Positions 1,454-51,687 of a stretch of DNA of 62,228 bases are shown here, piece by piece. The position numbers were made by a program, and so were the translations under genes. Every line of letters starts with the position of its first letter. Position 1 is the first letter of the stretch. Below the pieces are notes generated by a model, which was given only the letters and a program-made list of their open reading frames with translations, had not been told where the DNA came from and ran no database searches. The stretch covers positions 1 through 62,228 of the forward strand of contig CAXMND010000131.1 of NCBI GenBank assembly GCA_964194675.1. The letters are read 5' to 3'. Source of the stretch: an uncultured Coxiellaceae bacterium. Lineage in GTDB: Bacteria; Myxococcota_A; Polyangia; Polyangiales; Houyiibacteriaceae.

Positions 1454-1457
1454 AAGT

Positions 1458-1818
1458 AGTGGAGGCGGTGGGAATCGAACCCACGTCCGGAAATGTTCCA
1501 GAACTGCATCTACGTGCGTAGTTTGTGATTTGAAATTCGCCTTGGGTTGCGCCCACAAACAGGCTCGCACCAACGCTAGTGGTTCTTCATCTCGTCATTG
1601 CGCCGAACCCGACTCGCAATGACCAGCCCGTTCAAATGACGCCTCCGCTAGAAGCACAGGCAAGCTTCTAGGTTCGACGGCTCTCTTGGCTTTACTTAGG
1701 CCGCGAGAGCAACTGCGTTATCGTTGGCAGTTGTACGTCCCAAACGTTTTTACGTCGTGCTTGGGCCGACGGACACGCAACCGAACCTTCATCATCCCCG
1801 TCGAAACCGGTCGCCCCC
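1458..1818 (-). ncRNA. ssrA: tmRNA (SsrA)
   Basis: Minus strand begins GGGGGCGACCGGTTTCGACGGGGATGATGAAGG at 1818. It ends GGACGTGGGTTCGATTCCCACCGCCTCCA at 1460, giving a tRNA-Ala-like acceptor with a G:U pair and a T-arm. The internal tag frame GCC AAC GAT AAC GCA GTT GCT CTC GCG GCC TAA (1728 to 1696) encodes ANDNAVALAA*. The CCA end is not fully encoded (CTA). Confidence 0.95.
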
Positions 1819-4420: not shown

Positions 4421-4933
4421 GTGCCCGAAAGTGACCAACTCCCCGACAAGCTCCAGGTTGCCCGGTATTTGCTGCGCCAGGGCAGTGTCTTCGTGCACCT
4501 CGATCCTCGCGATGTCGGGGTCGTCGTCCCGCAGTGGTACCGCACCGAGCCGCAGCTAGTCCTGCAAATCGGGCTCGATATGCCGGTTCCGATTCCCGAC
4601 CTTCGTGTCGACGAAGAGGGCGTCTACGGCACCTTGTCCTTTAATCGCTCTCCCTTCACATGTCGGGTTGATTGGGATGCGGTGTTCGCGCTTGCGGGTG
4701 ATGACGGTCGAGGCATGGTCTGGCCGGACTCGATGCCCGAAGAGATTTCCCAGGAAATCGAGAGGGAAGCGGGTAGGGCATCCCCCCCAGATCCCACCAA
4801 GGATCTACCGGAGGAGCGCCCGTCGTTGCGGGTCTTGCCAAAGCTGGATGACTCGGAGCGCGAAGACATCACGCCGCGGGAAGTCACCACCAAACCCGGC
4901 GAGCTCCCCCCCTACCTCAAAGTGATCAAGTAA
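4421..4933 (+). CDS. sspB: ClpXP specificity-enhancing adaptor SspB
   Basis: Core PQLVLQIGLDMPVPIPDLRVDEEGVYGTLSFNRSPFTCRVDWDAVFAL is collinear with the E. coli SspB substrate-binding domain. An acidic linker follows. The C-terminal YLKVIK* matches the ClpX-binding LRVVK tail. GTG start. Confidence 0.8.
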   Translation: MPESDQLPDKLQVARYLLRQGSVFVHLDPRDVGVVVPQWYRTEPQLVLQIGLDMPVPIPDLRVDEEGVYGTLSFNRSPFTCRVDWDAVFALAGDDGRGMVWPDSMPEEISQEIEREAGRASPPDPTKDLPEERPSLRVLPKLDDSEREDITPREVTTKPGELPPYLKVIK

Positions 4934-5011
4934 ACCTTCGTCGACGCTGGCCCCCGCCGCTGCCGCGGGCAGCGATAGGCGTAGTTGTAGCCGCTGAAAC
5001 TACAGCCGATC

Positions 5012-5051
5012 AAAAAAGTAACGGCCCGGAAGGGGGGCTTCCGAGCCGTTA
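5012..5051 (-). terminator. rho-independent terminator (minus strand)
   Basis: 13-bp stem 5020-5032 / 5038-5050 with one mismatch and a 5-nt loop. On the minus strand it reads AACGGCTCGGAAG-CCCCC-CTTCCGGGCCGTT followed by CTTTTTTG (U6 = 5017-5012). Confidence 0.8.
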
Positions 5052-5158
5052 GAGAGATGACGATTTGGATGAAGTGGGGGGAAAACAAGCCAAATCGCCT
5101 GGTCTAACAACGCCGCAGGGGACGTGGGGGTACGTCTTCGCCACGGCGCTTATGTCGA
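5012..5158 (-). ncRNA. candidate sigma-54-dependent small RNA (~145 nt) with three C-rich loops
   Basis: Bounded by the sigma-54 promoter (5184-5169) and the terminator (5051-5012). No ATG-initiated ORF lies inside. Stem-loops are GACGU-ACCCCC-ACGUC (5136-5121), an 8-bp stem 5097-5090/5068-5061 with a CCCCCC-containing loop, and the terminator loop CCCCC. Confidence 0.5.
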
Positions 5159-5168
5159 AGTTACTGCA

Positions 5169-5184
5169 TGCGACTCTCGTGCCA
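5169..5184 (-). promoter_or_regulatory. sigma-54 (-24/-12) promoter
   Basis: Minus strand reads TGGCACG-AGAG-TCGCA. Against the consensus TGGCACG-N4-TTGCW this is 11/12 with correct GG/GC spacing. It lies in a non-coding AT-rich region. Confidence 0.6.
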
Positions 5185-5250
5185 AGAGGAAGAGAATGGG
5201 AATCACAAATGATCTCATATAGATTACTGATCGCTCCAGGGTGCGTTGAG

Positions 5251-5263
5251 TGCAGATCTGAAA
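5251..5263. promoter_or_regulatory. palindromic site 1, TGCAGATCTGAAA (candidate activator or operator site)
   Basis: CAGATCTG core centred about 99 bp upstream of the predicted sRNA start. It is the exact reverse complement of site 3 (5443-5455). Confidence 0.4.
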
Positions 5264-5422
5264 TTTTTTTGAAGTTCTGGGGACTTAACCCCTAAATCGC
5301 ACCTGATCACCCGATGGGGGACCCCCGAATGCGGGGTGGATCACAAACGACACATGTATGATTTAACCCTTACAGATGTACAACAGGCGTATCGGAGCTG
5401 GACAGGCGTGAGGCAGGTTACT

Positions 5423-5455
5423 TTTCAGATCTGAAATCTTTTTTTCAGATCTGCA
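5423..5455. promoter_or_regulatory. palindromic sites 2 and 3: TTTCAGATCTGAAA (perfect 14-bp palindrome) and TTTCAGATCTGCA
   Basis: Site centres are 20 bp apart. They lie immediately 3' of the phosphatase stop codon (5456-5458). Together they can also fold as an 11-bp hairpin. Confidence 0.4.
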
Positions 5456-6367
5456 TCACGGAACGCCATAGTCGAGGACCATAGGGTGTCTCTCCGAGAT
5501 CAGGAGGTCGGTCGCGGACCCCGCGAGCGGTTCTACGAAGCGGAAATCCTTGGTAGAAGGGTTGGCGGAGGTCTGCACCAACTCCGCGATCTCTCGACCG
5601 CTGCCAAATACTGACATCACCCCACCTGCACCCTTGGCACGAGCAACTTTGATTGCAGAGTTGAAATCCAACCCTGCTGGATTTCCCGCCGGATTAGCCC
5701 CATCGGAGGAGATCAGCTTGAGGACCACTTGGTCCGATCGCGGCTGATAGGTCTTACGGTGGTGATCCGGGACATGGGAATCGTCGTTGTGGCCCACGAG
5801 CTCCACGCGGTCGCCGGTAAATCGGAGAGTGCTGCGACCGGTGTTCCGCATCCTCCCGAGCGGCCAGGGCCACCTGCCGCGCGCGCCGATAAGGCCCGCC
5901 AGAATTGCCGCGATGATCCCACCATGGGTGAACACAATGGCTCGTCCGCCCTCGGGCATGCGTTCGCGCAGGGCGCGCAGGGCTCCGTCCGCTCGCGCGA
6001 ATACCTCCGGCCAGCTCTCTCCGCCTCCCACAGCAAATGTCTGGCGTTCTTTGAGCGCTGCGATTTGCTCTGGGAACTGCTCGACGACCTGTTCCATCGT
6101 CATGCCCTCCCAATCGCCCACGTCGATCTCGCGCCACGTCTGATCGAGCTCCAAAGGCCCGTGGGTGGATCGCGCCGAGTCGGCCGCGCGGCTCAGGTCG
6201 GAGCTGATGACGACGTCGTATTTCTCATCGGCGAGCGCTCGTTTGAGCGCGTCGGCCTGGGTCTGTCCGCGGTCGCTCAGGGGCGAATCCCCGTGGCCTT
6301 GCCACACGCCTCCGGCGTTGGAAACCGACTCGGCGTGTCGGACGAGACAGACCTCGAGCGCGCTCAT
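5456..6367 (-). CDS. histidine phosphatase family protein (PGM/CobC-like) with an uncharacterised ~100-aa C-terminal extension
   Basis: N-terminus [31 protein letters not shown] is the RHG motif. A later FTHGGII motif is present. The start overlaps the clpP stop (ATGA at 6364-6367). Confidence 0.75.
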
Positions 6368-6984
6368 GCCGCGGGCGCGACCCCTTCCTTGCGGGGCATG
6401 ATCACCTCGTCGATGATGCCGTACTCCTTGGCCTCGATCGCCGAGAGAAATTTGTCGCGTTCAGTATCGTGCCGAACTTTCTCGACGTCTTGTCCGGTGT
6501 GCTTGGCGAGGATCTCGTTTAGACGCTGCTTGGTGTGGAGGATCTCCCTGGCATGAATCTCGATGTCCGACGCCTGCCCCTGGTAACCGCCGAGCGGTTG
6601 GTGAATCATGACGCGACTGTGCGGAAGCGCGCGACGTAGCCCCTTGGTGCCTGAAGCCAGCAGGAACGCTCCCATCGAGGCGGCCTGCCCGAGGCACACG
6701 GTCGACACCGGGCATCGCACGTACCGAATAGTGTCGTAGATCGCCAGCCCTGACGAAACCAAACCGCCCGGGGTGTTGATGTAGATGGTGATCTCTCTGT
6801 CGGCGTCCTCGCTCTCGAGGTAGAGCAGCTGGGCGATGATCGCGTTCGCCACGAAATCGTCGAGCGGTGTCCCGAGGAAGACGATTCGGTCATTCAAAAG
6901 GCGGCTGTAAATATCCCAGGCCCGCTCCCCCCGGTGGGTTTCTTCGATGATAGTGATGGCACGCGTTGCTATGTCGTCGCTCAT
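6364..6984 (-). CDS. clpP: ATP-dependent Clp protease proteolytic subunit ClpP
   Basis: Shows [21 protein letters not shown]. Catalytic Ser in [11 protein letters not shown], His in MIHQPLGG and Asp in DTERDKF are all present. Confidence 0.95.
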
Positions 6985-7059
6985 GCGCTCAACGTAGTCC
7001 CTCAGGCCTCGCCCGCAATGAGGATTTTACGGACAAGGCTTCAGCGCTATGTTGCCTCA

Positions 7060-27174: not shown

Positions 27175-29586
27175 ATGACGACAGTCGGCGGGGGAGTCAG
27201 AGGCCTGGTCGCGCGGGCACAGCGGGAGGCGCAGAGGCGCGCCCACAGCCCGTCGACCGGATACCTCCTTTTGGTGATGCTTCGGTCGGGCGGGCCCACG
27301 GGGGGGCTCCTCTCGCGGCTTGGGGTTCGGGAGGGCGATCTCTTGAGCGCGATCCGGGTCGTCGATTCGGAGCCGGCCAGTGCGCTCGAGCGCGCGGTGG
27401 AGCGGGCGTACCGAATCGCCAAGGCCATGGGCGCCGATCAAGTCTTGCCCGCTCACCTTCTGTTCGCGATCGCCCGAGACACCCGTAGTACGGCGCATCG
27501 GAGTCTCGAACAGATCGGAGCTGGGCCGAAACGCGTCCAAGAAGCGGCGAGAAGCCTGCTCTCGCCCGATGACGCGCACGCCGAGCGAGCGTCGACCTAC
27601 ATTCGCCCCGCAGCCCCGGCCAAAGAAAGCCCGGGCCGACCCTCGCGACCTTCCGCGCGTCCAAACGTAGTAGCGGCGCCCCTGATCGAGCTTCGCGTCG
27701 AGAAGCCGGAGGCGTTGATCGAGTCTGAACCGACTGAAGAGGTCCCGGCCGAAGAAGAGCTCGTCGTTCCCTCTTCCTCTCCCTTTGCGCTCGACGCGGG
27801 TGCTTATCCGATGCTCTGCAAGCTCGGGCGGAACCTGACGGAGATGGCATCACTCGGGGAGATCGACGACGTGATCGGACGGGATGCCGAGATCGAACGA
27901 TTGCTCGATGTCTTGGCTAGGCGTCGTTCGAACAACCCTCTTTTGGTGGGGCCGCCCGGCGTCGGGAAGACCGCCATCGTCGAAGGGCTCGCATGCAAGA
28001 TCGCTCTAGGCGGAGAGGGCGTCCGAGGACTGGAAGGGACGATCCTGGTGGAGCTTTCTGCAGGTGGATTGGTCTCCGGGACCGGCGTGAGGGGCGCGCT
28101 TTCCGAACGGATGCGTCGTCTCCAGTTCGAAGTGAAGCGAGCCAATGGCCGCATCGTGTTGTTCATCGACGAAGTCCACGCGCTCTTCACGGGAGGGGAC
28201 GCGCCGGACGACTTGGCGCACGAGCTCAAGGCGTCGCTTGCCCGCGGTGAGCTCCCTTGCATCGGCGCGACCACGGATGTCGACTACCGCAAATACGTCG
28301 AACGGGATGCCGCACTCGCTCGCCGATTCTCACCGATTCACATAGCCGAACCTTCGGCGGAGGACGCGATCGAGATCCTCCGCGGCATTACGCCGCGGTA
28401 TGAGGTTCATCACGGCATCGCCTATGCACCGGAGGCTGTCGAATCCGCGGTCGAGCTGTCCGTGCGCTACATGGCGGAGCAGACGTTGCCAGACAAGGCG
28501 ATCGGGCTGCTCGACCTAGCTGGAGCCCGGATCCGTCGGCGCGGCGGCGTGATCGTCGACCGTGAGGCCGTCGCCCAAGTCGTTGCGGAAAAGGTTCGTG
28601 TTCCAGTCGAGCGACTCCTCGTGACCGACGCGCAGAAGCTCCTCGATCTCGAGCGACATCTGGCCGACCACGTCGTGGGGCATGCAGGCGTCATGACTCG
28701 CGTCGCCGATGCTCTCCGCAAAGGCGCTGCGGGGTTTCACGGCGACCGTCCCCTCGCGACCTTTTTGTTCACTGGTCAGACGGGCGTCGGGAAGACCGAG
28801 ACCGCCAGGGCCCTCAACGAGCTGTTTTTCACCGGATGTCCGATGACCCGAATCGACATGAGCGAGCTCAGCGAATCGCACGCGGTAGCCAAACTCGTGG
28901 GCGCTCCACCAGGGTACATCGGACACGACGCGGGCGGTCAACTGACCGAGGCCATTCGGCACCGACCGTACCAGCTCGTCTTGCTGGACGAGATCGAGAA
29001 GGCGCACGTCGACGTACTTCAGTCGCTATTGCCGCTGCTCGAGGATGGACGGTTGACCGACGGCAAGGGTCGTACCGTCGATTGCACGCACATCATCATC
29101 GTCATGACATCGAACCTCGGAGCGGAATGCGCCAGTGGCAGTCGGGGTTCGATCGGTTTCCGAAGCGCTTCGACACGAACGGACGATGGTGAGTCTACCG
29201 CTCTTTCGGCTGCGCGACGTGCGCTTCCGCTCGAGCTTTGGAACCGTATCGACGAACCGCTGTTCTTCGGTCCCCTCAGTCGAGACGAGGTCGCCGAGAT
29301 CGCTCGGCGGCTCATCGCCGGTGTGATTCGGCAGCTCAGCGAACGTCAGGGAGTCGAGCTTCGGGTCGACCCGTCTGCGATCGACGCATTGCTTGCTCTG
29401 GGCGGCTACGAAGCCGACCTCGGGGCGCGACCGATGCGACGCGTGATCGGGCGCCTCGTCGAAGCTCCACTTGCTGCCGCGATCCTCGCAGGCGACTTCG
29501 AAAAAGGCGATCGGATCCTGGCGAGAGGCGATTCGAATGACATTCGCTTCGAGCGCGCCGAGGGCTCTGTCGAAGCCGCCGAGTAG
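27175..29586 (+). CDS. ClpA/ClpC-like AAA+ unfoldase (two ATPase modules, Clp_N repeats, short or absent M-domain)
   Basis: D1 motifs LVGPPGVGKTAIVEGLA and VLFIDEVHALF. D2 motifs FTGQTGVGKTETARAL and LVLLDEIEKAHVDVLQSLLPLLEDGRLTD. RGSIGFRS contains an IGF-type ClpP-docking tripeptide. Confidence 0.8.
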   Translation: MTTVGGGVRGLVARAQREAQRRAHSPSTGYLLLVMLRSGGPTGGLLSRLGVREGDLLSAIRVVDSEPASALERAVERAYRIAKAMGADQVLPAHLLFAIARDTRSTAHRSLEQIGAGPKRVQEAARSLLSPDDAHAERASTYIRPAAPAKESPGRPSRPSARPNVVAAPLIELRVEKPEALIESEPTEEVPAEEELVVPSSSPFALDAGAYPMLCKLGRNLTEMASLGEIDDVIGRDAEIERLLDVLARRRSNNPLLVGPPGVGKTAIVEGLACKIALGGEGVRGLEGTILVELSAGGLVSGTGVRGALSERMRRLQFEVKRANGRIVLFIDEVHALFTGGDAPDDLAHELKASLARGELPCIGATTDVDYRKYVERDAALARRFSPIHIAEPSAEDAIEILRGITPRYEVHHGIAYAPEAVESAVELSVRYMAEQTLPDKAIGLLDLAGARIRRRGGVIVDREAVAQVVAEKVRVPVERLLVTDAQKLLDLERHLADHVVGHAGVMTRVADALRKGAAGFHGDRPLATFLFTGQTGVGKTETARALNELFFTGCPMTRIDMSELSESHAVAKLVGAPPGYIGHDAGGQLTEAIRHRPYQLVLLDEIEKAHVDVLQSLLPLLEDGRLTDGKGRTVDCTHIIIVMTSNLGAECASGSRGSIGFRSASTRTDDGESTALSAARRALPLELWNRIDEPLFFGPLSRDEVAEIARRLIAGVIRQLSERQGVELRVDPSAIDALLALGGYEADLGARPMRRVIGRLVEAPLAAAILAGDFEKGDRILARGDSNDIRFERAEGSVEAAE

Positions 29587-31545: not shown

Positions 31546-34500
31546 TTATGGATCTACACCAGCTTGGGTGCGAGCTTCAAAATGTGCATCACTCAAGGCG
31601 AACCGAATGAGGCCCCAGGCCTCTGGGGTCTCCCGGACCATCGCTAAACGGGCCGCCGCCGAGGTCGGAAGCTCCCGCCCTGCGACCTTCAACAGTGCGT
31701 TGACAGCGGACGGGACGTCACCGGTTAGGGTCAATGCGATGCGGCTGCCGAGCTGGGCGATCGCGATCGGAACGGATCGGGAGGAAAAATCGGTGTCACC
31801 GCGGATCTCCAGGACCAGGCTCTCCACTTCGTCTCGCCAGCGGCGCGGAACGGCTCGCACCAGCTTGCGGCGCAGCTCTTGGGCCTCGGGTGGAGCGGGC
31901 CGAGTAGCGCGACTTGCCTCGTGGGTGCCGAGAAGGGCTAGCAGCGCGGCATCGAGGTCCTCCGGGCTGGCGCGGAGCCCTGGCGACAGATGGTTGCTCG
32001 CAATCTTCAAGGCTCTGGCAAAGAGGAAGACCCGCTCTCGGCGTGTGGTGCGCTCGGGCAAGTTGGCGCCGAGGACGAGGGTAGGCGGGTCGCCTGAAAT
32101 CGGCATGCAGGCCGTCGGCGATGCATGGGTTAGCCGAATCCTGGGCTCGCTGATCCCGAGCCCCTCAGCGGCCAGTCCCGCTTCTTCGATCAGTGCACGC
32201 TGCTTTCCCGAGAGCCTCCGAAGTCCCCATGCCCCTGCGTCGAACGGAAGGACTTTTTCGAGGCCCTGCTCGCACAGGGTGAACAACCGAAGGGCGGTCG
32301 GGGGAAGCGCTTTGGGTGCGACGATCCGATCCACCGCCGTCGACAGTGGCAAGTGCGCCTCGCCAAGCGCTTCGTCGTTTTCGGTCACTGTGCCAATGAA
32401 AAGGGAGGACGGATATCCGAGTGCGATCGCGGCGCTCGCGGCACACGAGGCGGGCCCCAGGCCATGGCGCCGATTGAGCACGCGAACCAACGTGGTCCAC
32501 AAAGCTTCGTCCTCGGGACGCTCGTCGATCGCTTCGCGCAGATCCACGACGGCGCGGTTCAAGTGCATCGCGGAAGCCGGGACCGCGCCTTGTCGATCGA
32601 AGTGATCAGCGAGAGCGAGGATCACGTCGACTTCCGTAGGCTGTTCGCTCCGAAGTTGCTCCAAGGAAAACTCCGCTTGTCGAGGTTGCCCCGCAGATTC
32701 GATCGCAGCTGCGAGCCGTATTCGATAGTCTCGATCTTCGGCGTCGTTGCCCGCTCGCCGCACCAGCTTGGCAAGAACCCGGGCAGCTTCCTGCGCCTTG
32801 CCCTGCACGTTCAAGACCGAGGCCAAGCGGTCGAGCGTCTCGTCGTGCGCCGGCGCCAATTTGAGCACCTGGCGAAGCGCTGCTTCGGCACGAGGCAGGT
32901 CCTGCAGTTGTTCGTCGTAGATCTCGGCGAGCTGTGTGAAAGCCCACACCTGTTCATCGACCGATCGCTTCAACCGCACGATTCGAATTAGGGCCTCGGT
33001 CGCCCCTTGCCAATCGCGTTGGCTTCGGTGCGTTTCGACCAGCTCGGTAAGGGCCGCGAAGTGGTTTGGGTCCAGTTCCAGGCACTCGCCCAGCGACTCG
33101 ATGACCCCTTCGATGTCGTCCCTTTCTCGTCGTTGCCCCGCCTGCTCGAGCAGGAGCGCGACGAGTGTGGGCGTATCAGCCCCTGTCTCGATCCGCGATT
33201 CGGTGAGCGCCTCTGCGTCCGCCAGCCGACCCTGGCTCCGATAGAGGGATATGAGGCGGCGGTACACATCGAGGTAAGTGATGTCCGATTCGGTCGCTGC
33301 CACATATGCGTTGACCGCTCGCTCGGGATCCTTGAGTTTCTCATCGAGAATGCTGGCGGCTGCGTTCCAAAGCGAAGCCGCCCGGCGTCCGTCCTTCGCC
33401 CGTCGCGCCGCCTCCTGGTAGAGCGACGCAGCCTCTTCCCACCTTCTCGCGGCGTGCAGCAACCGAGCTTCGACCTCGAGCGCCAATGGGTGCCCCTCGG
33501 CCTCATCGAGGGTCGCGAGCGCGCGCTCAGGCTCGTTCATCCGCTCGAGAATGTGCGCACGTTCGAGCGCTAGGGCGCCTCGCTCGAGATCGCTTGGGAG
33601 GTGTGTTTGAATAGCCGCCAACGCGCGCAACGCCGTCTCGGATTCACCGCGAGCGTACGCTCTGCCGAGCACTTGTCGCGCCAATCCGGGGTCCGGGTCG
33701 ACCTCGTCGTTGATTCCGCGGAGTAGGCGATCGATGTCGGACGCCATGATGTCGGGGTCGGACCGCAACACCTCCACCATCAACCGATACCTTGCGGCGC
33801 GCTCGGGGGTTTCCGCTGGGAGGCACTTCAGAACTCGCTTGGCGCTCGACAAGATGCGTTCGCCGTCTTGCTCGCGGAGCGCGTCCCATTCGAGGACGCG
33901 TGCAGTTGGCAAGTGATCGGGGCGAGATTCGGCGATCGATTGCAGCGAAAGGCGTGCGCCTTGCATGTCGCCTCGTGCAAGCCGATCAACCGCCGCCATG
34001 GTGCAGAGCGCGCCGAGCTTCTCGTCTTCGTCCTGCGCCTCGCGGGCGCGCCGCATGGCCGAGTCCGCAACCCGGGCAAACTCGGATGCTTGTATCTCCG
34101 CCTCCTCGCACGAGGCCCGGAGCGTTTCACTGTCCGGCTGGTGGGAGACAGCCTCGCGGAGTGCCTTCGCCGCACGCGCCGGGAAGCCTGCGCTTTGGAA
34201 AGCGGTCGCCGCTCGCTCGAGGTAGGGGGGCGCGTCGAAATGGTTCGCCGCAAGAACCAGCAGCTCACCGGCGGCCTCCGAGTGCCTACCCGCGGCTTCG
34301 ATCAGATACTCGAGTAGCAAAGGATCGGGCGCGCGTCTGTCGAGGGCTGCTTCGGCGTGGTCAAGCCGGTCGGGATCGGATCTGGCCCACATCGAGGCGC
34401 GAAGCCACGCTACGGCCGAGCTGGACGTGGGTAGAGCGGCCTGTGCCGCAGCGGCGCGCTCGCGCACCGCCGAGGCTGAGGGGCCGTCTTCGAGCTCCCA

Positions 34501-36258
34501 CAGCGCTGGCCAATAATCGAGCTGCTTGTCGAAAGCCGCTTCTAGGGCATGCGTGGAGTCGGCGCCGGCTCGCCGGAGTAGTCGCGCCGCCATCGTCAGA
34601 GCAAAGGCGCCCTGAGCGCCGGTGGTGATCGCACCTTCTTCGAGCCACTGCTCGGCGGCTGCTCTTGGGTCGTCGTGATCGAGCAGGGCCAGAGCGCGGC
34701 AGATCATCGGCTCACGTCCGCCACGCTCTTTGGCGCGGGCCAACGATTCGCGCCGGCTCGTTACCCCGATCTCGTCGGCGACCTCAGCGAGGGCGAGCAC
34801 CGCACCCACTCGATCTGACGCGCGGTCGAGCTCCCGCTCGAGCGACGCAAAAAACGCGGCACCGTCTCCCATGTTGGCGGCCGCATCGGCGCGCATCATA
34901 TCGACTGCGACGCTCCGTGGCGCAGCGCTCATCGCATCCAACACGAGCTCTAGCTCGTTCCCGTCGTCGTCAGCCGCGATCAAACGTTCCCATGCCCGTA
35001 CGTAGTGCCCCAATCCGTGATCGTCGGCTTCCGCGATGACGTTCGCCTGGAGCTCGAGTCTGCTGCCGAGCTCTGCGCGCAAGCGTGCAGCGCGAGCCTG
35101 GCTCATGGCGTGCGCCTCTGGGCTCTGGTCCGTCGCTTCGGTGTCGAAGGCTTCCATTGCGGCTGGGATGTCGCCTGCGCGCGAGGCGATATCTGCCAGC
35201 GTCCACAGCGACACGAGGTCGTCGTGCCCATCGAGCTGAGCCATAGCGTCTTCACGCTCCCCGAGCGCCTGGTCGAGGATGGTCGCTGCGGCGCGACGAA
35301 GAGCGCGGGACAAGGCCGGGACTTCGGTTTGGGTGGCTGCGTTCTGGAGAGAGGTCACACAGGTTCGAGAGTCGCCAAGTTTGCGGGCGGCGCGGATCAA
35401 ACCCAGCCGCGCCGGGAGAGACGTTGGGTCTAGACCACTCGCACGCTGGTAGAGCGAGCTTGCTGCCTCCGATTCTCCCCCCTGTTCCATCAGCGCGCCC
35501 GCATGTTGGGTGAGAACGGATTGCGCGCCCGGCTCCGGCCAGACGGAAGCGGCGCTGGCGATCGCTTCTCCGGCCCGCGCGAAGTCCCCCCGAGCGATCC
35601 GGGCAGAGGCCAACAGCATGAGCGCCACGAAATCGTCGTCATGTACTCGGGTGGCCTGCTCGGCTGCGCGCTCGGCGGCGGCCGAATCACCCGTCCGATA
35701 GAGATGGATCTGGGCGAGAAGCTTGAGAGCCGACACCTGCTCCGCTGCGGCGAGATCGAGGGCAGCCTCGTTACCGAGGGCTTCTGCGGCTCCATCCCAG
35801 TCACCCCGCCGCATCGCATGGTACCGGAGGGCGCGGAGTGCAACCACGTCTCGCGCGTCGGCGTTTAGCGCCTCGCGGTAGGCCTCCATCGCGGAGTCCG
35901 CATCCCCGAGCCGCTCGTGTAGCTCGCCGGCGGCCGTGAAGAGCCGTGCGCGGGCCGATCCAGCCGCGCGCTCAGCGAGTGTATTCAAGAGTGCGATTCG
36001 GCGCTTCTTCGCGCCTTGATCATCGCCGACGAGCGGCAGCGCCTCCTTGCGCGGCGCGTGCTGGAAGACCGTTCGCTGAGCGGCCTGAGCGCCCGCGTCG
36101 TTGGGATCGGGTGGGTGCGAGACTCGCTTGCCCTGCGGCCCGGTCTGTGTGGCGACAAACGTGTCCAGCAAAGTCGAGATGCTCTCCTCGTCGAAGTCGA
36201 ACGAGGGGGCGGCCGATTCTTGTTTCCCAGTGCGCATGTCGTGCTCGTCTTCAGCCAT
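31546..36258 (-). CDS. giant TPR repeat protein (1570 aa) with a non-TPR C-terminal domain
   Basis: Ala/Leu/Arg-rich 34-residue periodic helical repeats run throughout. No signal peptide. The C-terminal ~250 aa are collinear with the C-terminus of the upstream paralog. Confidence 0.75.
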   Translation of the reverse strand: MAEDEHDMRTGKQESAAPSFDFDEESISTLLDTFVATQTGPQGKRVSHPPDPNDAGAQAAQRTVFQHAPRKEALPLVGDDQGAKKRRIALLNTLAERAAGSARARLFTAAGELHERLGDADSAMEAYREALNADARDVVALRALRYHAMRRGDWDGAAEALGNEAALDLAAAEQVSALKLLAQIHLYRTGDSAAAERAAEQATRVHDDDFVALMLLASARIARGDFARAGEAIASAASVWPEPGAQSVLTQHAGALMEQGGESEAASSLYQRASGLDPTSLPARLGLIRAARKLGDSRTCVTSLQNAATQTEVPALSRALRRAAATILDQALGEREDAMAQLDGHDDLVSLWTLADIASRAGDIPAAMEAFDTEATDQSPEAHAMSQARAARLRAELGSRLELQANVIAEADDHGLGHYVRAWERLIAADDDGNELELVLDAMSAAPRSVAVDMMRADAAANMGDGAAFFASLERELDRASDRVGAVLALAEVADEIGVTSRRESLARAKERGGREPMICRALALLDHDDPRAAAEQWLEEGAITTGAQGAFALTMAARLLRRAGADSTHALEAAFDKQLDYWPALWELEDGPSASAVRERAAAAQAALPTSSSAVAWLRASMWARSDPDRLDHAEAALDRRAPDPLLLEYLIEAAGRHSEAAGELLVLAANHFDAPPYLERAATAFQSAGFPARAAKALREAVSHQPDSETLRASCEEAEIQASEFARVADSAMRRAREAQDEDEKLGALCTMAAVDRLARGDMQGARLSLQSIAESRPDHLPTARVLEWDALREQDGERILSSAKRVLKCLPAETPERAARYRLMVEVLRSDPDIMASDIDRLLRGINDEVDPDPGLARQVLGRAYARGESETALRALAAIQTHLPSDLERGALALERAHILERMNEPERALATLDEAEGHPLALEVEARLLHAARRWEEAASLYQEAARRAKDGRRAASLWNAAASILDEKLKDPERAVNAYVAATESDITYLDVYRRLISLYRSQGRLADAEALTESRIETGADTPTLVALLLEQAGQRRERDDIEGVIESLGECLELDPNHFAALTELVETHRSQRDWQGATEALIRIVRLKRSVDEQVWAFTQLAEIYDEQLQDLPRAEAALRQVLKLAPAHDETLDRLASVLNVQGKAQEAARVLAKLVRRAGNDAEDRDYRIRLAAAIESAGQPRQAEFSLEQLRSEQPTEVDVILALADHFDRQGAVPASAMHLNRAVVDLREAIDERPEDEALWTTLVRVLNRRHGLGPASCAASAAIALGYPSSLFIGTVTENDEALGEAHLPLSTAVDRIVAPKALPPTALRLFTLCEQGLEKVLPFDAGAWGLRRLSGKQRALIEEAGLAAEGLGISEPRIRLTHASPTACMPISGDPPTLVLGANLPERTTRRERVFLFARALKIASNHLSPGLRASPEDLDAALLALLGTHEASRATRPAPPEAQELRRKLVRAVPRRWRDEVESLVLEIRGDTDFSSRSVPIAIAQLGSRIALTLTGDVPSAVNALLKVAGRELPTSAAARLAMVRETPEAWGLIRFALSDAHFEARTQAGVDP

Positions 36259-39200
36259 GTGCCCCCCACAGTGGCGACTCGGCGCCGATCCAGAAGCGCA
36301 AGAGATCGAGTGCTCGTTCCGAGGTGCGGAGCCCTTCCAGATTTGCTTTTCGGGATGGGAGAACCTCTCCGAGCGCGACGCCGATGTCGCCCGATGCCAT
36401 GAGACCCGCGCGATCGGCGCCTTGTTGGAGCCTGCGGGCGACTTGCAGCAGGGCTGTCGTGGTGACGCGAGTTCCGGAGACGAGCTCGTGCACCGTGCGT
36501 CGGACCGAGCGTGGCAGCTTGACCTCGATTCGGGCTACCGCCGAGGAATCGAACTCGACTTCACAGCGTCCCGCTCGAAGAATGCCGGCGAGCTTGGCAG
36601 CGATATCGTCCGTCGAGTTGCCGACCAGCTCGCCCGCTCCCCGAGGAACGGCCCAGGCAAGACGGCCCGCGTGAAAAACGTCGGCGTGCCCGAGCGCGTC
36701 CTTGTTCTGCGGCGACACCAACCAATCGACCTCCCCGTGGCGACCCGCTCGCGCTTGGACGGGTGTGGGAGCATCGGACAGAGCGATCGTTCCGAGCGGT
36801 GCGCCGAAACGCCGGCATAGAAGATCGAGCTGTCCGTATACCCGATCCTCGGGGCCAGCTTTTTGCCGCGAGGGCAGTCGGCCCTTCACGAGACTCGGCC
36901 CGGCGCGCAACACCACGTGTTCGAAAGTCTCGTCGGCGCGTACGTCGCCTAAGGCTCCGAGAGGTACATGATCGAACGTCGGGCGCGACCCGTGTGTAAC
37001 CTGGTCGGCGGCGACTAGTTGGAGTGCTACGAGACTAGTCTTCACAGCCGTTGCTCGCTCCGGCTGTGAACGCCATGTTGCGGCGTCCTCCAAGCCCTGC
37101 AGCAGGGATACTTCGAGCTCGCCGCGATCGATGCTCTCCCAAATTGCGCGCTCGTAGTCCTTGATGGCGGAGGTGCGAGGGGCATCCTCGAGGAGTTCGA
37201 CCAAGCTCGAAATTGCAATCCGGAGTGTTGGCTCGAGGCCCAGGGCGCGCTGGTACGCGTCTACCGCGCGGTCATCGTGACCACGAATCGATTCGAGCTT
37301 CCCGATTCGGGTGAGCGTCGATGCATCCGCCAACCCGAGATCGTCCACCGCCCGCAACTCGGCGAGCGCTTCTTCGCTCCGTCCGAGCCGGCTTTCTAGG
37401 AAGTCCGCGGCGCCGAGGTGCGCAATACCCTTTTGCTCCGGAGGGATTTTCGCCCCGGCGAGTCGCTGAAGGCTCTCTACGGCTTCGTCCCAGTGTTCTA
37501 GAGAGACGTGCACCTCGGCCGCTAGCGCCAGAGCGCCAGGATGGTCCGGCGTCGCGACGAACAGCTCGTCGAGCACCTGCAGTGCTTCCGTTCGTTCGCT
37601 GAACCCACGAAGCAGGCGCGCTCTCTCGTAGAGAAGCTCCTCGCGGTCCTGGGGACCCCCTTGCTCGAGGCGCGACGCGACGAGGTCTTGAAGCGCGTCC
37701 GCATCTTCCTTTTCGGCGAGGAGGTCGTGGAGACGTCGGAACGCGACGTCTCTGCCCGGGTCCTCCGCCAACGCTGCTCGGAACGAGTCCTCCCCCAGCT
37801 GGTCCTGGTCGAGATGATCCAACCGAACGACACCGGCTTCTTCCAGCAGGTCGGCGCGAAGCGAGCCGTCGACGAACTGGGCCAAGCGTTCGCACGCGAG
37901 CGCCACGAGTGACCAGTCCTCGGCTCGACGAGCCGCACTTCGAAGTGTTTCCCAAAGGGCCAAGTCGTCCGGTCGCTCATCGATTTCGCGACTCAGGATC
38001 GCCACCGCTTCGGCTCCCCGATCCGCGTCGACCAGCGCGCGACAGTATGCGGACTCGAGCGCGGCACGTCCCATCGCGTCGCTGTGATGAAGCCTATGTT
38101 CGAGGGAGCTTGCGCGGAAGTCAGCGTCGTCACCCGCACTCAAGGCCTCATCGATGGCTGCCGTCGCCTCGAGCTCGTCCGTTGCAAGCTCGATCGCGTC
38201 CTGCGCCAAGAGGAATAGCTCGTCCCCGGCATCGGCACCCCGGGCAATGCGCGTCGCGCGAAGCCCTTGGAGGAGTGCGCCGGCGCGAAGGTGCTCGTTG
38301 GGCGCCAGCTCGGAGAGGCGAAGCCACGCGTCTCCGGTGGGAACACTTCGCTCGAGGTCGGCGCGCCAGGCCCCATAGGCCTCGGCGAAGCCCCCAGATG
38401 GGTCTTCCGTTGCAGCGGCGGATCGTTCGAGGACGCGCTCGGCCACTCCGCGTTGCGGATCCGTAGTGAGTCGGCCCAGCACGGACAGGAGGCCGATCGC
38501 CGCTGCGATCGAAGTCGCAGGATCGTCCAGAGCGGTTTCGTAAGCTTCGGCAGCCTCCGACTCCCGGCCGGCGAAGGCGAGAGCATCCCCGAGCAGTACC
38601 GAGTAGACCTCGGGTACGCCTCCGCCGAGGTCGCTTTGCGCCAACGCGCTGTGAGCCCGTATCGTCGCGCCCGCGTCGCCTTGCCGCCTCGCGATGTCGA
38701 GAAGCGCGAGGGCCGCAGACGGGGAAGAAGGGAAGGCTTTGAGCGCGACCTCGTATGCGTGTCTCGCGGCGGTGAAATTCTCGTTCCTCTCAGCGGTCGC
38801 ACCTGCCAGTAATAACGATAATTCGTCCAACGGAGACCCCGGATCGCTCTCGGAGCGTTGGTGAGCGAGAGACACGGCGGCCTCAGGTCGTCCACTTTCG
38901 CGGAGCACGCCTTGCAGCAGCGACAGCACGTGGCCGTCGTCCGGCGCCTCTTCGAGCGCCCGGCGAAGCGCGTCCTCGGAGGACTCCCATCGGCCCGCAC
39001 GTGCATAGGTTTGCGCCGCTGCGCACAGGTGCCCCACGCGGACGTCGTTCACCGTGAGTGAAGCGAGGGTCTCGTGCGCTCGGATCAGGAGATCCGAATC
39101 ACCGCTCCAGGCCGCCCGCGCCCGCGCGACATGAGGAGCCCAGCTCTGGTGCGCCGGATCATCGACCGCCTCTTGCAAGAACGTTCGTGCTTCGTCCTCT

Positions 39201-49881: not shown

Positions 49882-51687
49882 CTACTGGACACGGTACTTG
49901 CTGACTTTCCCACGGAGGGACGCCTCTTCGGCAGTCGATCGAGAGACGATGATCGGAGGCTCGAACGCGTTTCGGAAGAGCCACCAGCGCGGAGTGATCG
50001 CTTGCGGGGCGACGTCCCAGATCTCGACGTCCGGTCCTTCGGCGCGCAGGTCGACCATGAAATAGCCGTCCAACTGTCGATACGGGTACCGGGCTGCAAG
50101 GTCGATTCGTTCGTTCTCGGGGAGATCGTCGACCGGAGCGATGAAGACCCAGCCCTCGATGCCCTGGTTGTTGGTGATATGTGGCCTGGGCCGTGGCGAC
50201 CACCGATAGGTCGCCCGATCGAGGGTGATATCGAAACGCGGCTCGAGGCGGCGTGACTTCAAACTCGGGTGCAATTGCACCCCCGTGTCACGATCGGTCC
50301 ACGCCTTCACGCTTTCGGCGAAACGAAGCTCGGGTCGTCCTGAGTCGTACGTGTCGACTGCGCCCCGCACCGGTGTGAAGAACCACATCGAACCCCCCAC
50401 GTAGCGCCCACGCGGAACGAGCTGTGCGTCACGAACGGCCAAGGGCACCAAGAAGATTGCGACGCTGAAGGCTGCCGCTCTCGCCACCTTGGCTCGTGCA
50501 AAGATCGACGGGCGGCCCTCTAGGGCACGGTTGACCCGGGTCTCGACCGAGCGTCCGATGGCCAGCAGAGATGTCGTGACGGCGATCGAAATGAACGGAA
50601 GTATTGGCCAGGCCCAGTACGAGTGCACCAATGCGCTCCAGCTGAAAGTGAGATAGTGGGCCAGCCCGGCAACGAGAAACGCGATGGGCACGAGGTCGCG
50701 CGCCTCGGCCTTGAAGCGCGCCAGCCGAGCACCCCACGCCAGGAGCCATGCTCCGGACAGCGCCAAAATCGGGGCGGTGAACATCAGCTCCGGGACGATG
50801 AGGAGGTGGGTTCGAAACCGCTGCCACGAAAGTGCTCTGCGTGCGTTGAACGTGCCCGTCAGCTCGTCGACATTCCCCGTCAACCATTCAACCAGTGCGA
50901 AGTGCCCTACAAACAACAACAACACCCACCCGCAGAAAATCCCTAACTGCAAGACCGCGATAGTGCTCCTTTGCGCCCCCACGCTAGCGCCTAGGTCGGG
51001 CCTACGGCCCGTCAGTTTGTCCGGCCCCACCGCCCCCACGCTAGCGCCTAAGGCCCAGTGGGCGGCGATGCAGAGGGCGACGTAGTAGGCGGGCCAGTCC
51101 CAGGTGGCGGCCATGGTGAAGGCGCCAAGGAAGAGAAAGAAAGGAGGCCACCGCCACGGTACCGCGTCCCTCGAGCGCACGTAGAGGTAGAGCACGAGCA
51201 GGCTCCAGAAGATGAACCCAGCGGAGTGGTTCGCCATGTTGGTGTAGATCGCGTTGATAGGTAGAGCGACGTAGATTGCGGCCGCCAAGAGTCCGTGAGC
51301 GTCGCTCCATAGTCGCCGCACGACCGCGAACAGCATGCAAAACGCCGCAACGCTCCAGAACGCGGCGACGAGTCGGATCGACAGTTCGCGGTCGCCGAAG
51401 ACGCCGATGCTCGCCACGTTGTGGAGGTGAAGTCCCAAGGGCGCATGGGTGTAGAGTCGCTCCTTCTTGGGGGGCACGTTGGCGGTATCGTATTGAAGGG
51501 GGAAGAGCTCACCCCATCGCAAGGTGTTGCGCGCGCCATTGTGATAAGCAGCTCCGTTCCAGCCGTTGTGGCCACGCGTCCACTGGTCGGCCACTCCCCA
51601 CATTCCGAGGAACACCTGACACGCGAGCAAGACGGCGAACGCCGCGTAGACGAGTGCTCGCCTGCCACCGACACGATCAGGGTCCAT
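49882..51687 (-). CDS. GT-C fold glycosyltransferase (family 39 / ArnT-PMT-like) membrane protein
   Basis: GHNGWNGAAYHNGARNTLRWGE...RLYTHAPLGLHL first-loop pattern. About 10 TM helices. A ~200-aa C-terminal soluble domain follows. Confidence 0.6.
   Translation of the reverse strand: MDPDRVGGRRALVYAAFAVLLACQVFLGMWGVADQWTRGHNGWNGAAYHNGARNTLRWGELFPLQYDTANVPPKKERLYTHAPLGLHLHNVASIGVFGDRELSIRLVAAFWSVAAFCMLFAVVRRLWSDAHGLLAAAIYVALPINAIYTNMANHSAGFIFWSLLVLYLYVRSRDAVPWRWPPFFLFLGAFTMAATWDWPAYYVALCIAAHWALGASVGAVGPDKLTGRRPDLGASVGAQRSTIAVLQLGIFCGWVLLLFVGHFALVEWLTGNVDELTGTFNARRALSWQRFRTHLLIVPELMFTAPILALSGAWLLAWGARLARFKAEARDLVPIAFLVAGLAHYLTFSWSALVHSYWAWPILPFISIAVTTSLLAIGRSVETRVNRALEGRPSIFARAKVARAAAFSVAIFLVPLAVRDAQLVPRGRYVGGSMWFFTPVRGAVDTYDSGRPELRFAESVKAWTDRDTGVQLHPSLKSRRLEPRFDITLDRATYRWSPRPRPHITNNQGIEGWVFIAPVDDLPENERIDLAARYPYRQLDGYFMVDLRAEGPDVEIWDVAPQAITPRWWLFRNAFEPPIIVSRSTAEEASLRGKVSKYRVQ

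Follow-up and report, generated by a model that had tools for sequence, protein, structure and literature searches.

The 62,228-nt contig CAXMND010000131.1 (the window) comes from an uncultured myxobacterium, and the gap between its sspB and histidine-phosphatase genes raises the question of whether a regulatory RNA is encoded there and, if so, what switches it on and what it acts upon. An earlier reading made from the letters of the window alone, here called the original prediction, proposed an orphan sigma-54-type promoter and, under its control, an RNA of ~145 nt that ends at a terminator and has three C-rich loops. All the sequence features that it listed were found where it had placed them, and the comparative data agree with its overall interpretation. 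We consider it very likely that the minus strand from 5185 to 5012 is a genuine small RNA (sRNA) gene of ~147 bases. Positions are numbered over the whole window, and the sRNA, its promoter and its upstream control region all lie on the minus strand (Table 1).

Relatives of the locus were collected from genomes and metagenomes. For the genome scan, one genome per species was searched with the protein of the neighbouring histidine-phosphatase gene, which gave 39 loci whose orthologues are 58-87% identical, all in metagenome-assembled genomes (MAGs) titled Myxococcota, Polyangiales, Myxococcales or Deltaproteobacteria. The promoter and the RNA were present in 37 of the 39 loci with 80-91% DNA identity, and the remaining two contigs end before reaching the unit. 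The metagenome search used a pattern taken from the loop of stem-loop 1 (SL1) plus the linker, and its matches were scored with the covariance model R1. Full RNA was found on 44 of the 46 contigs that matched the pattern; the other two (L095 and L099) were chance matches within unrelated sequence and were set aside. Model R1 gave 157 bits in the window and 154-187 bits in 81 other loci. Across the loci the RNA is 81-94% identical at the DNA level, the phosphatase 49-91% and SspB 62-95% at the protein level. In 69 unique sequences, conservation begins exactly at TTGGCA and ends just past the U-tract. The sRNA is always situated between phosphatase and sspB as a single copy per locus, and the gene order of the relatives is the same throughout (M20 peptidase >, < clpP, < phosphatase, < sRNA, sspB >, EamA >), with tmRNA a few kb beyond the conserved gene block. 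No paralogue was detected by model R1 in the window or in 53 genome-scan loci. A search of related genomes had been proposed as a check in the original prediction, and it found the unit kept in the MAG loci and the metagenome contigs alike, with promoter and stems conserved. The sRNA is found solely in uncultured marine myxobacteria. Judged from sequence, this conservation is the decisive evidence for the predicted sRNA gene.

The predicted transcript is also unusually well structured. The minimum free energy of a 149-nt stretch was -58.2 kcal/mol, compared with -36.1 ± 3.1 kcal/mol for shuffles (z = -7.2). An alignment of 38 sequences was folded with RNAalifold, and pair counts were compared with those obtained with partners slid by 1-3 columns and with 500 shuffles. 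The same three hairpins were recovered with 43 pairs. The original prediction had suggested looking for compensatory changes in three stems with conserved C-runs, and 12 of the 43 pairs carry such changes in the presence of invariant C-runs. Paired cells amounted to 99.1% versus 39-46% with slid partners, doubly changed pairs numbered 12 versus 0-5 with slid partners, and none of the 500 shuffles reached any of the observed pairing measures. In SL1, both sides have changed in 8 of 16 pairs, and 98.1% of cells are paired. Its 10-bp outer stem is the helix richest in covariation and holds 8 covarying pairs; this stem had been overlooked in the original prediction, which correctly described the three C-run loops, including the SL1 tip GACGU-ACCCCC-ACGUC at 5136-5121. 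The tip ACGU-(A)C5-6-ACGU is invariant and recurs in distant relatives. Stem-loop 2 (SL2) shows compensatory changes in 2 pairs (A-U to G-C, 11 sequences) with 99.1% of cells paired, and the segment CCCCCACUUC of its loop is invariant. Stem-loop 3 (SL3), the terminator, shows 2 compensatory pairs (C-G to U-A and A-U to G-C) with 100% of cells paired. The terminator hairpin, its C5 loop and the U6 tract had been predicted correctly; the stem consists of 14 pairs, including 8 G-C pairs and one G.U pair that had been taken for a mismatch, and is followed by CUUUUUU. Its loop is C5 in the window and C6-C7 in relatives, and a terminator scan of 4500-6000 found SL3 to be the sole terminator-like site. 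Thus loops and linkers are invariant and stems covary, and the invariant apical C-runs of the three hairpins read (A)C5-6 closed by ACGU/ACGU, UUUC6ACUUCA and C5-7, with the motif CCCCCCAC common to loops 1 and 2.

The conserved unit starts with the promoter. The sequence CTTGGCACGAGAGTCGCATGC (5186->5166, minus strand) contains the -24/-12 element TTGGCACG-N4-TCGCA, and TGGCACGAGAGTCGCA agrees with the consensus TGGCACG-N4-TTGCW at 11 of 12 positions with canonical GG/GC spacing, as had been predicted together with a start near 5158. It is the sole such match in the window. TTGGCA and GCAT, which contain the GG and GC, do not vary in the 38 aligned and 69 unique sequences, nor does the spacing between them. 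Variation is seen in the 14 nt upstream, in the 4-nt spacer and in the 8-10 nt that separate the -12 element from the RNA, and the majority form among relatives is TTGGCACGGTAGTAGCAT. The sRNA is probably sigma-54-dependent. A promoter scan of 4500-6000 found no sigma-70-like promoter. A divergent sigma-70 promoter noticed by eye (TTGAAG-N18-TAAATT, plus strand, with a small hairpin terminator) lacked support and was dropped.

Conservation also extends over the ~270 bp from the phosphatase stop to the promoter, in the form of blocks parted by variable segments of constant length. The original prediction had placed the RNA in an AT-rich stretch; such a stretch exists, and it is the upstream region 5201-5456 (G+C of 0.515, the minimum of the window) rather than the RNA itself (0.56-0.58). 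In most relatives the promoter-proximal block is an inverted repeat, ATCAT-TC-ATGAT, in which GAGATCA and TGATTC are invariant and both flanks variable. Farther upstream, TTTCAGATCTG, in the region of the A/T tract and the proximal palindrome, is invariant in all sequences, and tract and palindrome are a candidate bending site and a candidate upstream activator site. The other conserved blocks include GTGAGCTGCCTCAC-type and TGTAA-containing blocks and a CRP/FNR-like TGTGA-N6-YCACR at 5345-5330, ~-180, of which the window's own copy reads TGTGA-N6-CCGCA. The distal palindrome pair adjoins the phosphatase stop codon or overlaps with it; all relatives keep the first copy, and most have a degenerate second one. 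The window contains three matches to the palindrome, all of them inside this intergenic region, at ~-98, -272 and -292; activator sites typically lie 80-150 bp upstream. In most relatives the phosphatase open reading frame (ORF) ends within the distal palindrome (...CAG ATC TGA). The window's stop is 6 nt earlier (5444-5456 region) and the palindrome is nevertheless kept, so that its conservation must have a cause other than coding. A second RNA in the upstream 270 bp was considered and rejected: RNAalifold gave -21 and -8.5 kcal/mol for the two strands and hardly any compensatory pairs, and an apparent long-range helix is merely the two palindrome copies pairing together. Because no covarying RNA fold was found on either strand, we read the upstream blocks as protein-binding DNA, a candidate sigma-54 enhancer region with putative activator sites and a bending tract.

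We then turned to more distant relatives, and SspB homologues with 55-60% identity led to four further contigs. The locus L103 has the same synteny, and its RNA, though diverged (78.7 bits), keeps the three C-loops and shows numerous compensatory changes; the TTTCAGATCTGAAA site at the phosphatase stop is retained as well. L100 carries two perfect palindromes, 22 bp apart, directly after the sspB stop; ~100 bp past them comes TTGGCACGAACCTCGCT and then a 110-nt RNA made up of a single long hairpin with a C8 loop plus a terminator. L101 contains two genes with the promoters TGGCACGACAATCGCA and TGGCACGCGGTTAGCA; one of the genes gives a single hairpin of 55 nt, the other an RNA with three hairpins (39.9 bits). 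Three genes that combine a sigma-54-type promoter with a C-loop were found on both strands in L102, and one lies in the 188-nt gap after sspB in L105. Motifs related to the promoter-proximal block (AAATCATTGCG and CAATGATTTCG) are equally placed before the sigma-54 promoters of L101 and L102. In total, L100, L101, L102 and L105 have seven sigma-54-type promoters, each followed, next to sspB, by a hairpin RNA whose loop reads UUC6-8AC, and these seven are the only sigma-54-type matches in ~80 kb of the loci. The same four loci also carry paired palindromes, spaced 20-22 bp, at 76-152 bp before the predicted starts. More than any other observation, the repetition of this arrangement among diverged RNAs argues for a functional -24/-12 element, for the C-run as the active portion and for the palindrome as part of the control region.

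Two further features of the sister loci were noticed. The minimal forms are ~55 nt long, and their single C-loop hairpin doubles as the terminator. In L100, the sigma-54 sRNA is separated from a gene for a protein that resembles an enhancer-binding protein (EBP) by a tandem array (5826-6513) of 6.6 copies of a 105-nt unit with 99% identity. Every unit can be drawn as a hairpin that has G8 on the plus strand and thus C8ACG, the loop motif of the family, on the minus strand. The array could represent extra sRNA modules or a sponge.

The EBP-like protein in question has the domains FHA, Sigma54_activat (AAA+) and HTH_8. Its gene adjoins the sRNA cluster in L100, L102 and L105, with a divergent Crp-family gene beyond, and each such gene that we found (Table 1) is paired with a divergent Crp-family gene (cNMP_binding + HTH_Crp_2). 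In L106 this pair occurs with sspB ~2 kb downstream, with neither a sigma-54 promoter nor a C-loop motif. The cultured species Sandaracinus amylolyticus has the same gene pair, and at that locus there is no sigma-54 promoter or C6AC motif. The FHA-AAA+-HTH_8 protein may bind the enhancer via HTH_8.

How would such an RNA be made and act? The explanation that we favour, and regard as fairly probable, is that the sRNA is an independent gene for a trans-acting regulatory RNA that is fired by sigma-54 and pairs its C-runs with G-tracts. RNA polymerase containing sigma-54 would wait at the promoter as a closed complex until a signal causes an AAA+ enhancer-binding activator, encoded at another place in the genome, to bind to the palindromes and start transcription, with the A/T tract perhaps helping by DNA bending. 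The exposed C-runs (CCCCCCAC) would then pair with GUGGGGGG-like G-tracts in or near the ribosome-binding regions of several mRNAs and alter the translation or stability of those mRNAs, in the manner of 6C, sX13 and RsaE/RoxS. By analogy with these RNAs, the chances are slightly better than even that the sRNA acts through pairing of its C-runs with G-tracts in mRNAs. The partner expected is GUGGGGGG, since loops 1 and 2 share CCCCCCAC. In a target scan of the start sites in the window (170 start sites, 510 tests, 62 kb of genome), the best partner was a gene for a TPR protein (1570 aa, 31546-36258, minus strand; CUGUGGGGGGCACAUG, -19.7 kcal/mol). This gene has GUGGGGGG at -12 to -5 (within 36258-36275), 4 nt upstream of its ATG, as the exact complement of CCCCCCAC.

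Several points weigh against this explanation; they concern the promoter, its activator and possible targets. Where transcription starts, whether it depends on RpoN and that the RNA exists as a discrete species are all predictions from sequence features. At least one promoter match with at most one mismatch occurred in 41 of 100 shuffled windows, so that the single-window match is within chance; the significance of the promoter comes from its conservation in relatives and not from that match. The -12 element is T(A/C)GCA rather than TTGCW, and its GC is lost, being replaced by other bases, in L103. Neither a GAFTGA regular expression nor tblastn with the AAA+ domain of EBPs detected an EBP gene in the window, as had been stated in the original prediction, or in the fetched flanks of the clade; the activator may be encoded elsewhere in the genome. 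The FHA-AAA+-HTH_8 protein was rejected as a canonical activator because it has no GAFTGA: in an alignment to ZraR (PDB 1ojl), the GAFTGA loop and the next insertion are deleted, which would make the usual remodelling of the sigma-54 holoenzyme impossible. As for targets, the CCCCCC(AC) loop motif fits GUGGGGGG-type tracts and not the GGAGGG Shine-Dalgarno sequence upstream of clpP in the clade. The anti-Shine-Dalgarno function suggested in the original prediction is plausible only by analogy with 6C, sX13 and RsaE, and because of this mismatch G-tract pairing is the more accurate term. The TPR site lies ~3 standard deviations (sd) from the mean of the 170 start sites (-8.8, sd 3.6), which is not significant with 510 tests. 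Regulation of clpP via an early G6 run (CGGGGGGAG) was discarded since the run is not conserved, and no G-tract recurs at the starts of neighbouring genes across the loci. No conserved target was found.

We considered whether the locus could instead be a small protein gene, in which a short minus-strand GTG/TTG ORF or an ATG ORF antisense to SL2 is translated. Minus-strand ORFs of 31-58 aa do exist, and an antisense ATG ORF starting MAIWMKWGE is present in many relatives. The loops of all three hairpins and the flank of SL2, however, have 1-nt indels that shift all these frames between relatives, and the predicted peptides are wholly different beyond each indel, so that no ORF is shared among relatives. 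There is no conserved ATG ORF, and the GTG/TTG ORFs are broken by the same kind of indel. The variable columns are distributed 17/26/22 by position modulo 3, without 3-nt periodicity, and the substitutions in stems are compensatory. The RNA had been predicted to be non-coding, and on the grounds of indels, unshared ORFs and lack of periodicity we rejected the small protein, which is now hardly credible. Another possibility is that the RNA is a long 3' untranslated region and terminator of the clpP-phosphatase operon, from which an sRNA arises by processing, with the -24/-12 element incidental or secondary. The RNA indeed runs in the same direction as the phosphatase, no intrinsic terminator other than its own occurs downstream of the operon in 4500-6000, and conservation covers everything between the phosphatase stop and this terminator. 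Such an origin would leave unaccounted for a GG and a GC that stay invariant at exact spacing amid variable bases, as well as upstream blocks without RNA covariation. Moreover, L100, L101, L102 and L105 have the promoter and a C-loop RNA on either strand relative to sspB without a clpP-phosphatase operon upstream, and we regard an origin as operon 3' end as very unlikely. Read-through from the operon could still be a second source of the sRNA.

The alternative to mRNA pairing is that the C-rich loops are multivalent sites for an RNA-binding protein, such as a KH-type poly-C binder, or for another RNA, and that the sRNA acts by sequestration like CsrB/RsmZ or 6S. One motif occurs in three loops of a single RNA and is multiplied in relatives (three genes in L102, and the 105-nt x 6.6 array with C8AC on one strand in L100), the loops are invariant beyond mere C-richness, and a conserved mRNA target was not found. 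On the other side, the locus has no linked gene for a candidate binding protein, seed-type pairing would suit the conserved unpaired linkers and 5' end just as well, and the known sRNAs with multiple C-loops base-pair (6C, PMC6486639; sX13, PMC3771888; RsaE, PMC6435200). Such a decoy RNA is unlikely, and G-tract pairing by an independent sigma-54-fired sRNA remains the reading that we prefer. A wider and more speculative idea, improbable as a whole, is a lineage-wide module at sspB near tmRNA and clpP. It would comprise one to several sigma-54-fired C-loop RNAs, a shared palindromic enhancer that in sister lineages is gated by the GAFTGA-less FHA/AAA+/HTH_8 protein and its Crp-family partner, and G8/C8 hairpin arrays as extra copies or sponges, and it might couple a Ser/Thr-kinase or cyclic-nucleotide signal to the post-transcriptional control of proteolysis or ribosome rescue.

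The RNA was also compared with known families. At gathering thresholds, Rfam 15 reported only tmRNA in the whole window, so that the Rfam check proposed in the original prediction returned no family for the sRNA. At E <= 10, four matches were obtained on 4850-5550; mir-7385 and sR53 were chance matches, and the two relevant ones, ar7 and 6C, were far below threshold. The ar7 family (RF02342) scored 28.4 bits in the window and 29.4-35.7 bits in L006, L017, L019 and L036 (7 relatives scanned) against a gathering threshold of 60, and 6C (RF01066) scored 23.8 bits in the window and 31.7-33.4 bits in L017, L019, L033 and L036 (the same number scanned) against 47. Membership in either family therefore fails, and the resemblance is one of architecture. 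6C has apical C-runs of six or more, as here (C6 in SL2; C5 in SL3 of the window and C6-7 in relatives), and its two hairpins align end to end with SL2 and SL3. Through its C-rich loops 6C pairs with several mRNAs, without a chaperone (PMC6486639). Unlike 6C, which belongs to Actinobacteria, the sRNA described here occurs in Myxococcota and has an extra 5' hairpin, conserved linkers and a sigma-54 promoter. ar7 (Smr7C) shares with it a single copy, a length of ~150 nt, three covarying hairpins of which the last is a terminator, and C-rich loops in the consensus, and the alignment of ar7 to the sRNA covers the full length of the model (positions 1-145/145); ar7 comes from Rhizobiales, alpha-proteobacteria, whereas the present RNA is myxococcal. 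The alpha-r7 genes show strict microsynteny within their lineage and are described as having 'well-defined promoter regions', with no sigma-54 evidence there and no function established in that study (PMC3346310).

sX13 of Xanthomonas and RsaE/RoxS of Firmicutes have several stem-loops whose C-rich tips pair with G-rich sequence in or close to the ribosome-binding site (PMC3771888, PMC6435200). These RNAs have shorter C motifs (CCCC) than the C6-7 followed by AC seen here, and neither family was among the four Rfam matches at E <= 10. Their promoters are not known to be of the sigma-54 type. Sigma-54-dependent sRNAs are represented by Qrr1-5 (LuxO), GlmY (GlrR) and CrcZ (CbrB), for which the activator is known and often adjacent. 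The present sRNA resembles them in its -24/-12 promoter, its short terminator-bounded regulatory RNA and its candidate upstream activator sites, and the copy-number expansion in L101 (two genes) and L102 (three) resembles that of Qrr. There is no relation to Qrr, GlmY or CrcZ in sequence or structure, and the adjacent EBP-like protein of the sister lineages differs in being without GAFTGA. Pxr of Myxococcus xanthus, the myxobacterial precedent invoked in the original prediction, has three predicted stem-loops and is restricted to Cystobacterineae (PMC11928866). It is likewise a myxobacterial three-stem-loop sRNA, in a different genomic context, and was not among the four matches at E <= 10 in 4850-5550; the precedent therefore holds as an analogy only. 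Our search of the literature on sigma-54-dependent sRNAs in Myxococcota and Deltaproteobacteria returned nothing describing this RNA. The sRNA is a new family of an already known C-rich-loop design and is absent from the catalogues. We know of very few regulatory RNAs in Myxococcota, and of none in uncultured marine or sediment Polyangia-like lineages. The new family rests on 81 loci, stem covariation and sharp conservation boundaries, and a new Rfam family could be built from its alignment, which is of sufficient quality. It extends to a further phylum a design known in Actinobacteria, Firmicutes, Xanthomonas and Rhizobiales, here combined with sigma-54 control, and the promoter type together with the unusually large conserved control region makes its regulation and action directly testable.

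Table 1. Coordinates of the sRNA gene, its control region and associated genes (window numbering unless a locus is named)
Feature	Position	Strand	Remarks
Predicted sRNA transcript	5012..5158	-	~147 nt; start 5158 +/- 2, predicted from promoter geometry; 3' end at U-tract
Sigma-54-type promoter TTGGCACGAGAGTCGCA	5169..5185	-	-24 GG 5183-5182; -12 GC 5171-5170; predicted +1 near 5158
5' single-stranded segment GACAUAA	5150..5156	-	A8, C9, A10 invariant, neighbours nearly so; preceding 5-6 nt vary
Stem-loop 1	5109..5150	-	outer 10-bp stem 5150-5141/5118-5109; inner GACGU/ACGUC 5136-5132/5125-5121; loop ACCCCC
Linker 1 GUUAGACC	5101..5108	-	UAGACC invariant in alignment
Stem-loop 2	5060..5099	-	9-10 bp stem (core 5097-5090/5068-5061); 21-nt loop CUUGUUUUCCCCCCACUUCAU holding C6
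Linker 2, pyrimidine, CAUCUCUC(U) / CAUCUCUCU	5052..5059	-	UCUCU invariant in alignment
Stem-loop 3, intrinsic terminator	5012..5051	-	14-bp stem 5051-5019, loop CCCCC, then C + U6 (5017-5012)
Promoter-proximal block ATGAGATCATT(C/T)(A/G)TGATTC = ATGAGATCATTCATGATTC	5200..5218	-	~-60 to -42
A/T tract GAACTTCAAAAAAA, then proximal palindrome TTCAGATCTGCA	5251..5277	-	palindrome 5262-5251, centre ~-98.5
Blocks GTGTCGTTTGTGATCC...(variable 12 nt)...TCGG-CGATCGGGTGCAATTTAGGGGTTAA	5284..5353	-	block conservation at fixed spacing
Blocks GT(G/A)AGCTGCCTCACGCCTGTCCAGCT and ATACA-TGTAATTCATCTGTAAGGGTTA	5364..5422	-	block conservation; no supported RNA structure
Distal TTCAGATCTGAA palindrome pair	5424..5455 (5455-5444, 5435-5424)	-	20 bp apart; centres ~-291.5 and -271.5
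tmRNA	1457-1818	-	also near the sRNA in relatives L010, L019
SspB-like adaptor (sspB)	4421-4933	+	
ClpP (clpP)	6364-6984	-	
ClpA/ClpC-type ATPase	27175-29586	+	
Sister-lineage sRNA genes	L101 5671-5750, 5948-6148; L102 5742-5880, 6190->5930, 6474->6330		one intergenic region per locus
FHA - AAA+ (Sigma54_activat) - HTH_8 proteins without GAFTGA	L100 6538-8136; L102 6553-7776; L105 6001-7608; L106 6001-7626; L104 6001-7638		

Genes of Clp proteolysis and ssrA tagging surround the sRNA in the window, namely tmRNA, the SspB-like adaptor, ClpP and a ClpA/ClpC-type ATPase. Upstream of clpP (6985-7030, minus strand) a conserved AAAATCCGGATTGCAGG motif and a Shine-Dalgarno region GGAGGGACUAGGUU occur clade-wide and may be the promoter and leader of the clpP operon. 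Within 5186-5456 of the window there are six GATC motifs, five of them clade-invariant (AGATCT twice, TGATCC, CGATCG and AGATCA), where a composition estimate at this G+C gives ~1 per 270 bp. This excess could reflect the half-site of one regulator or methylation-sensitive control. Finally, ACGUGGGGGG at 50391-50400 (minus strand), within the coding sequence for a PMT_2-family glycosyltransferase (gene 49882-51687), is a perfect 10-nt complement of the SL1 tip of the relatives, CCCCCCACGU; SL1 of the window has one C fewer.

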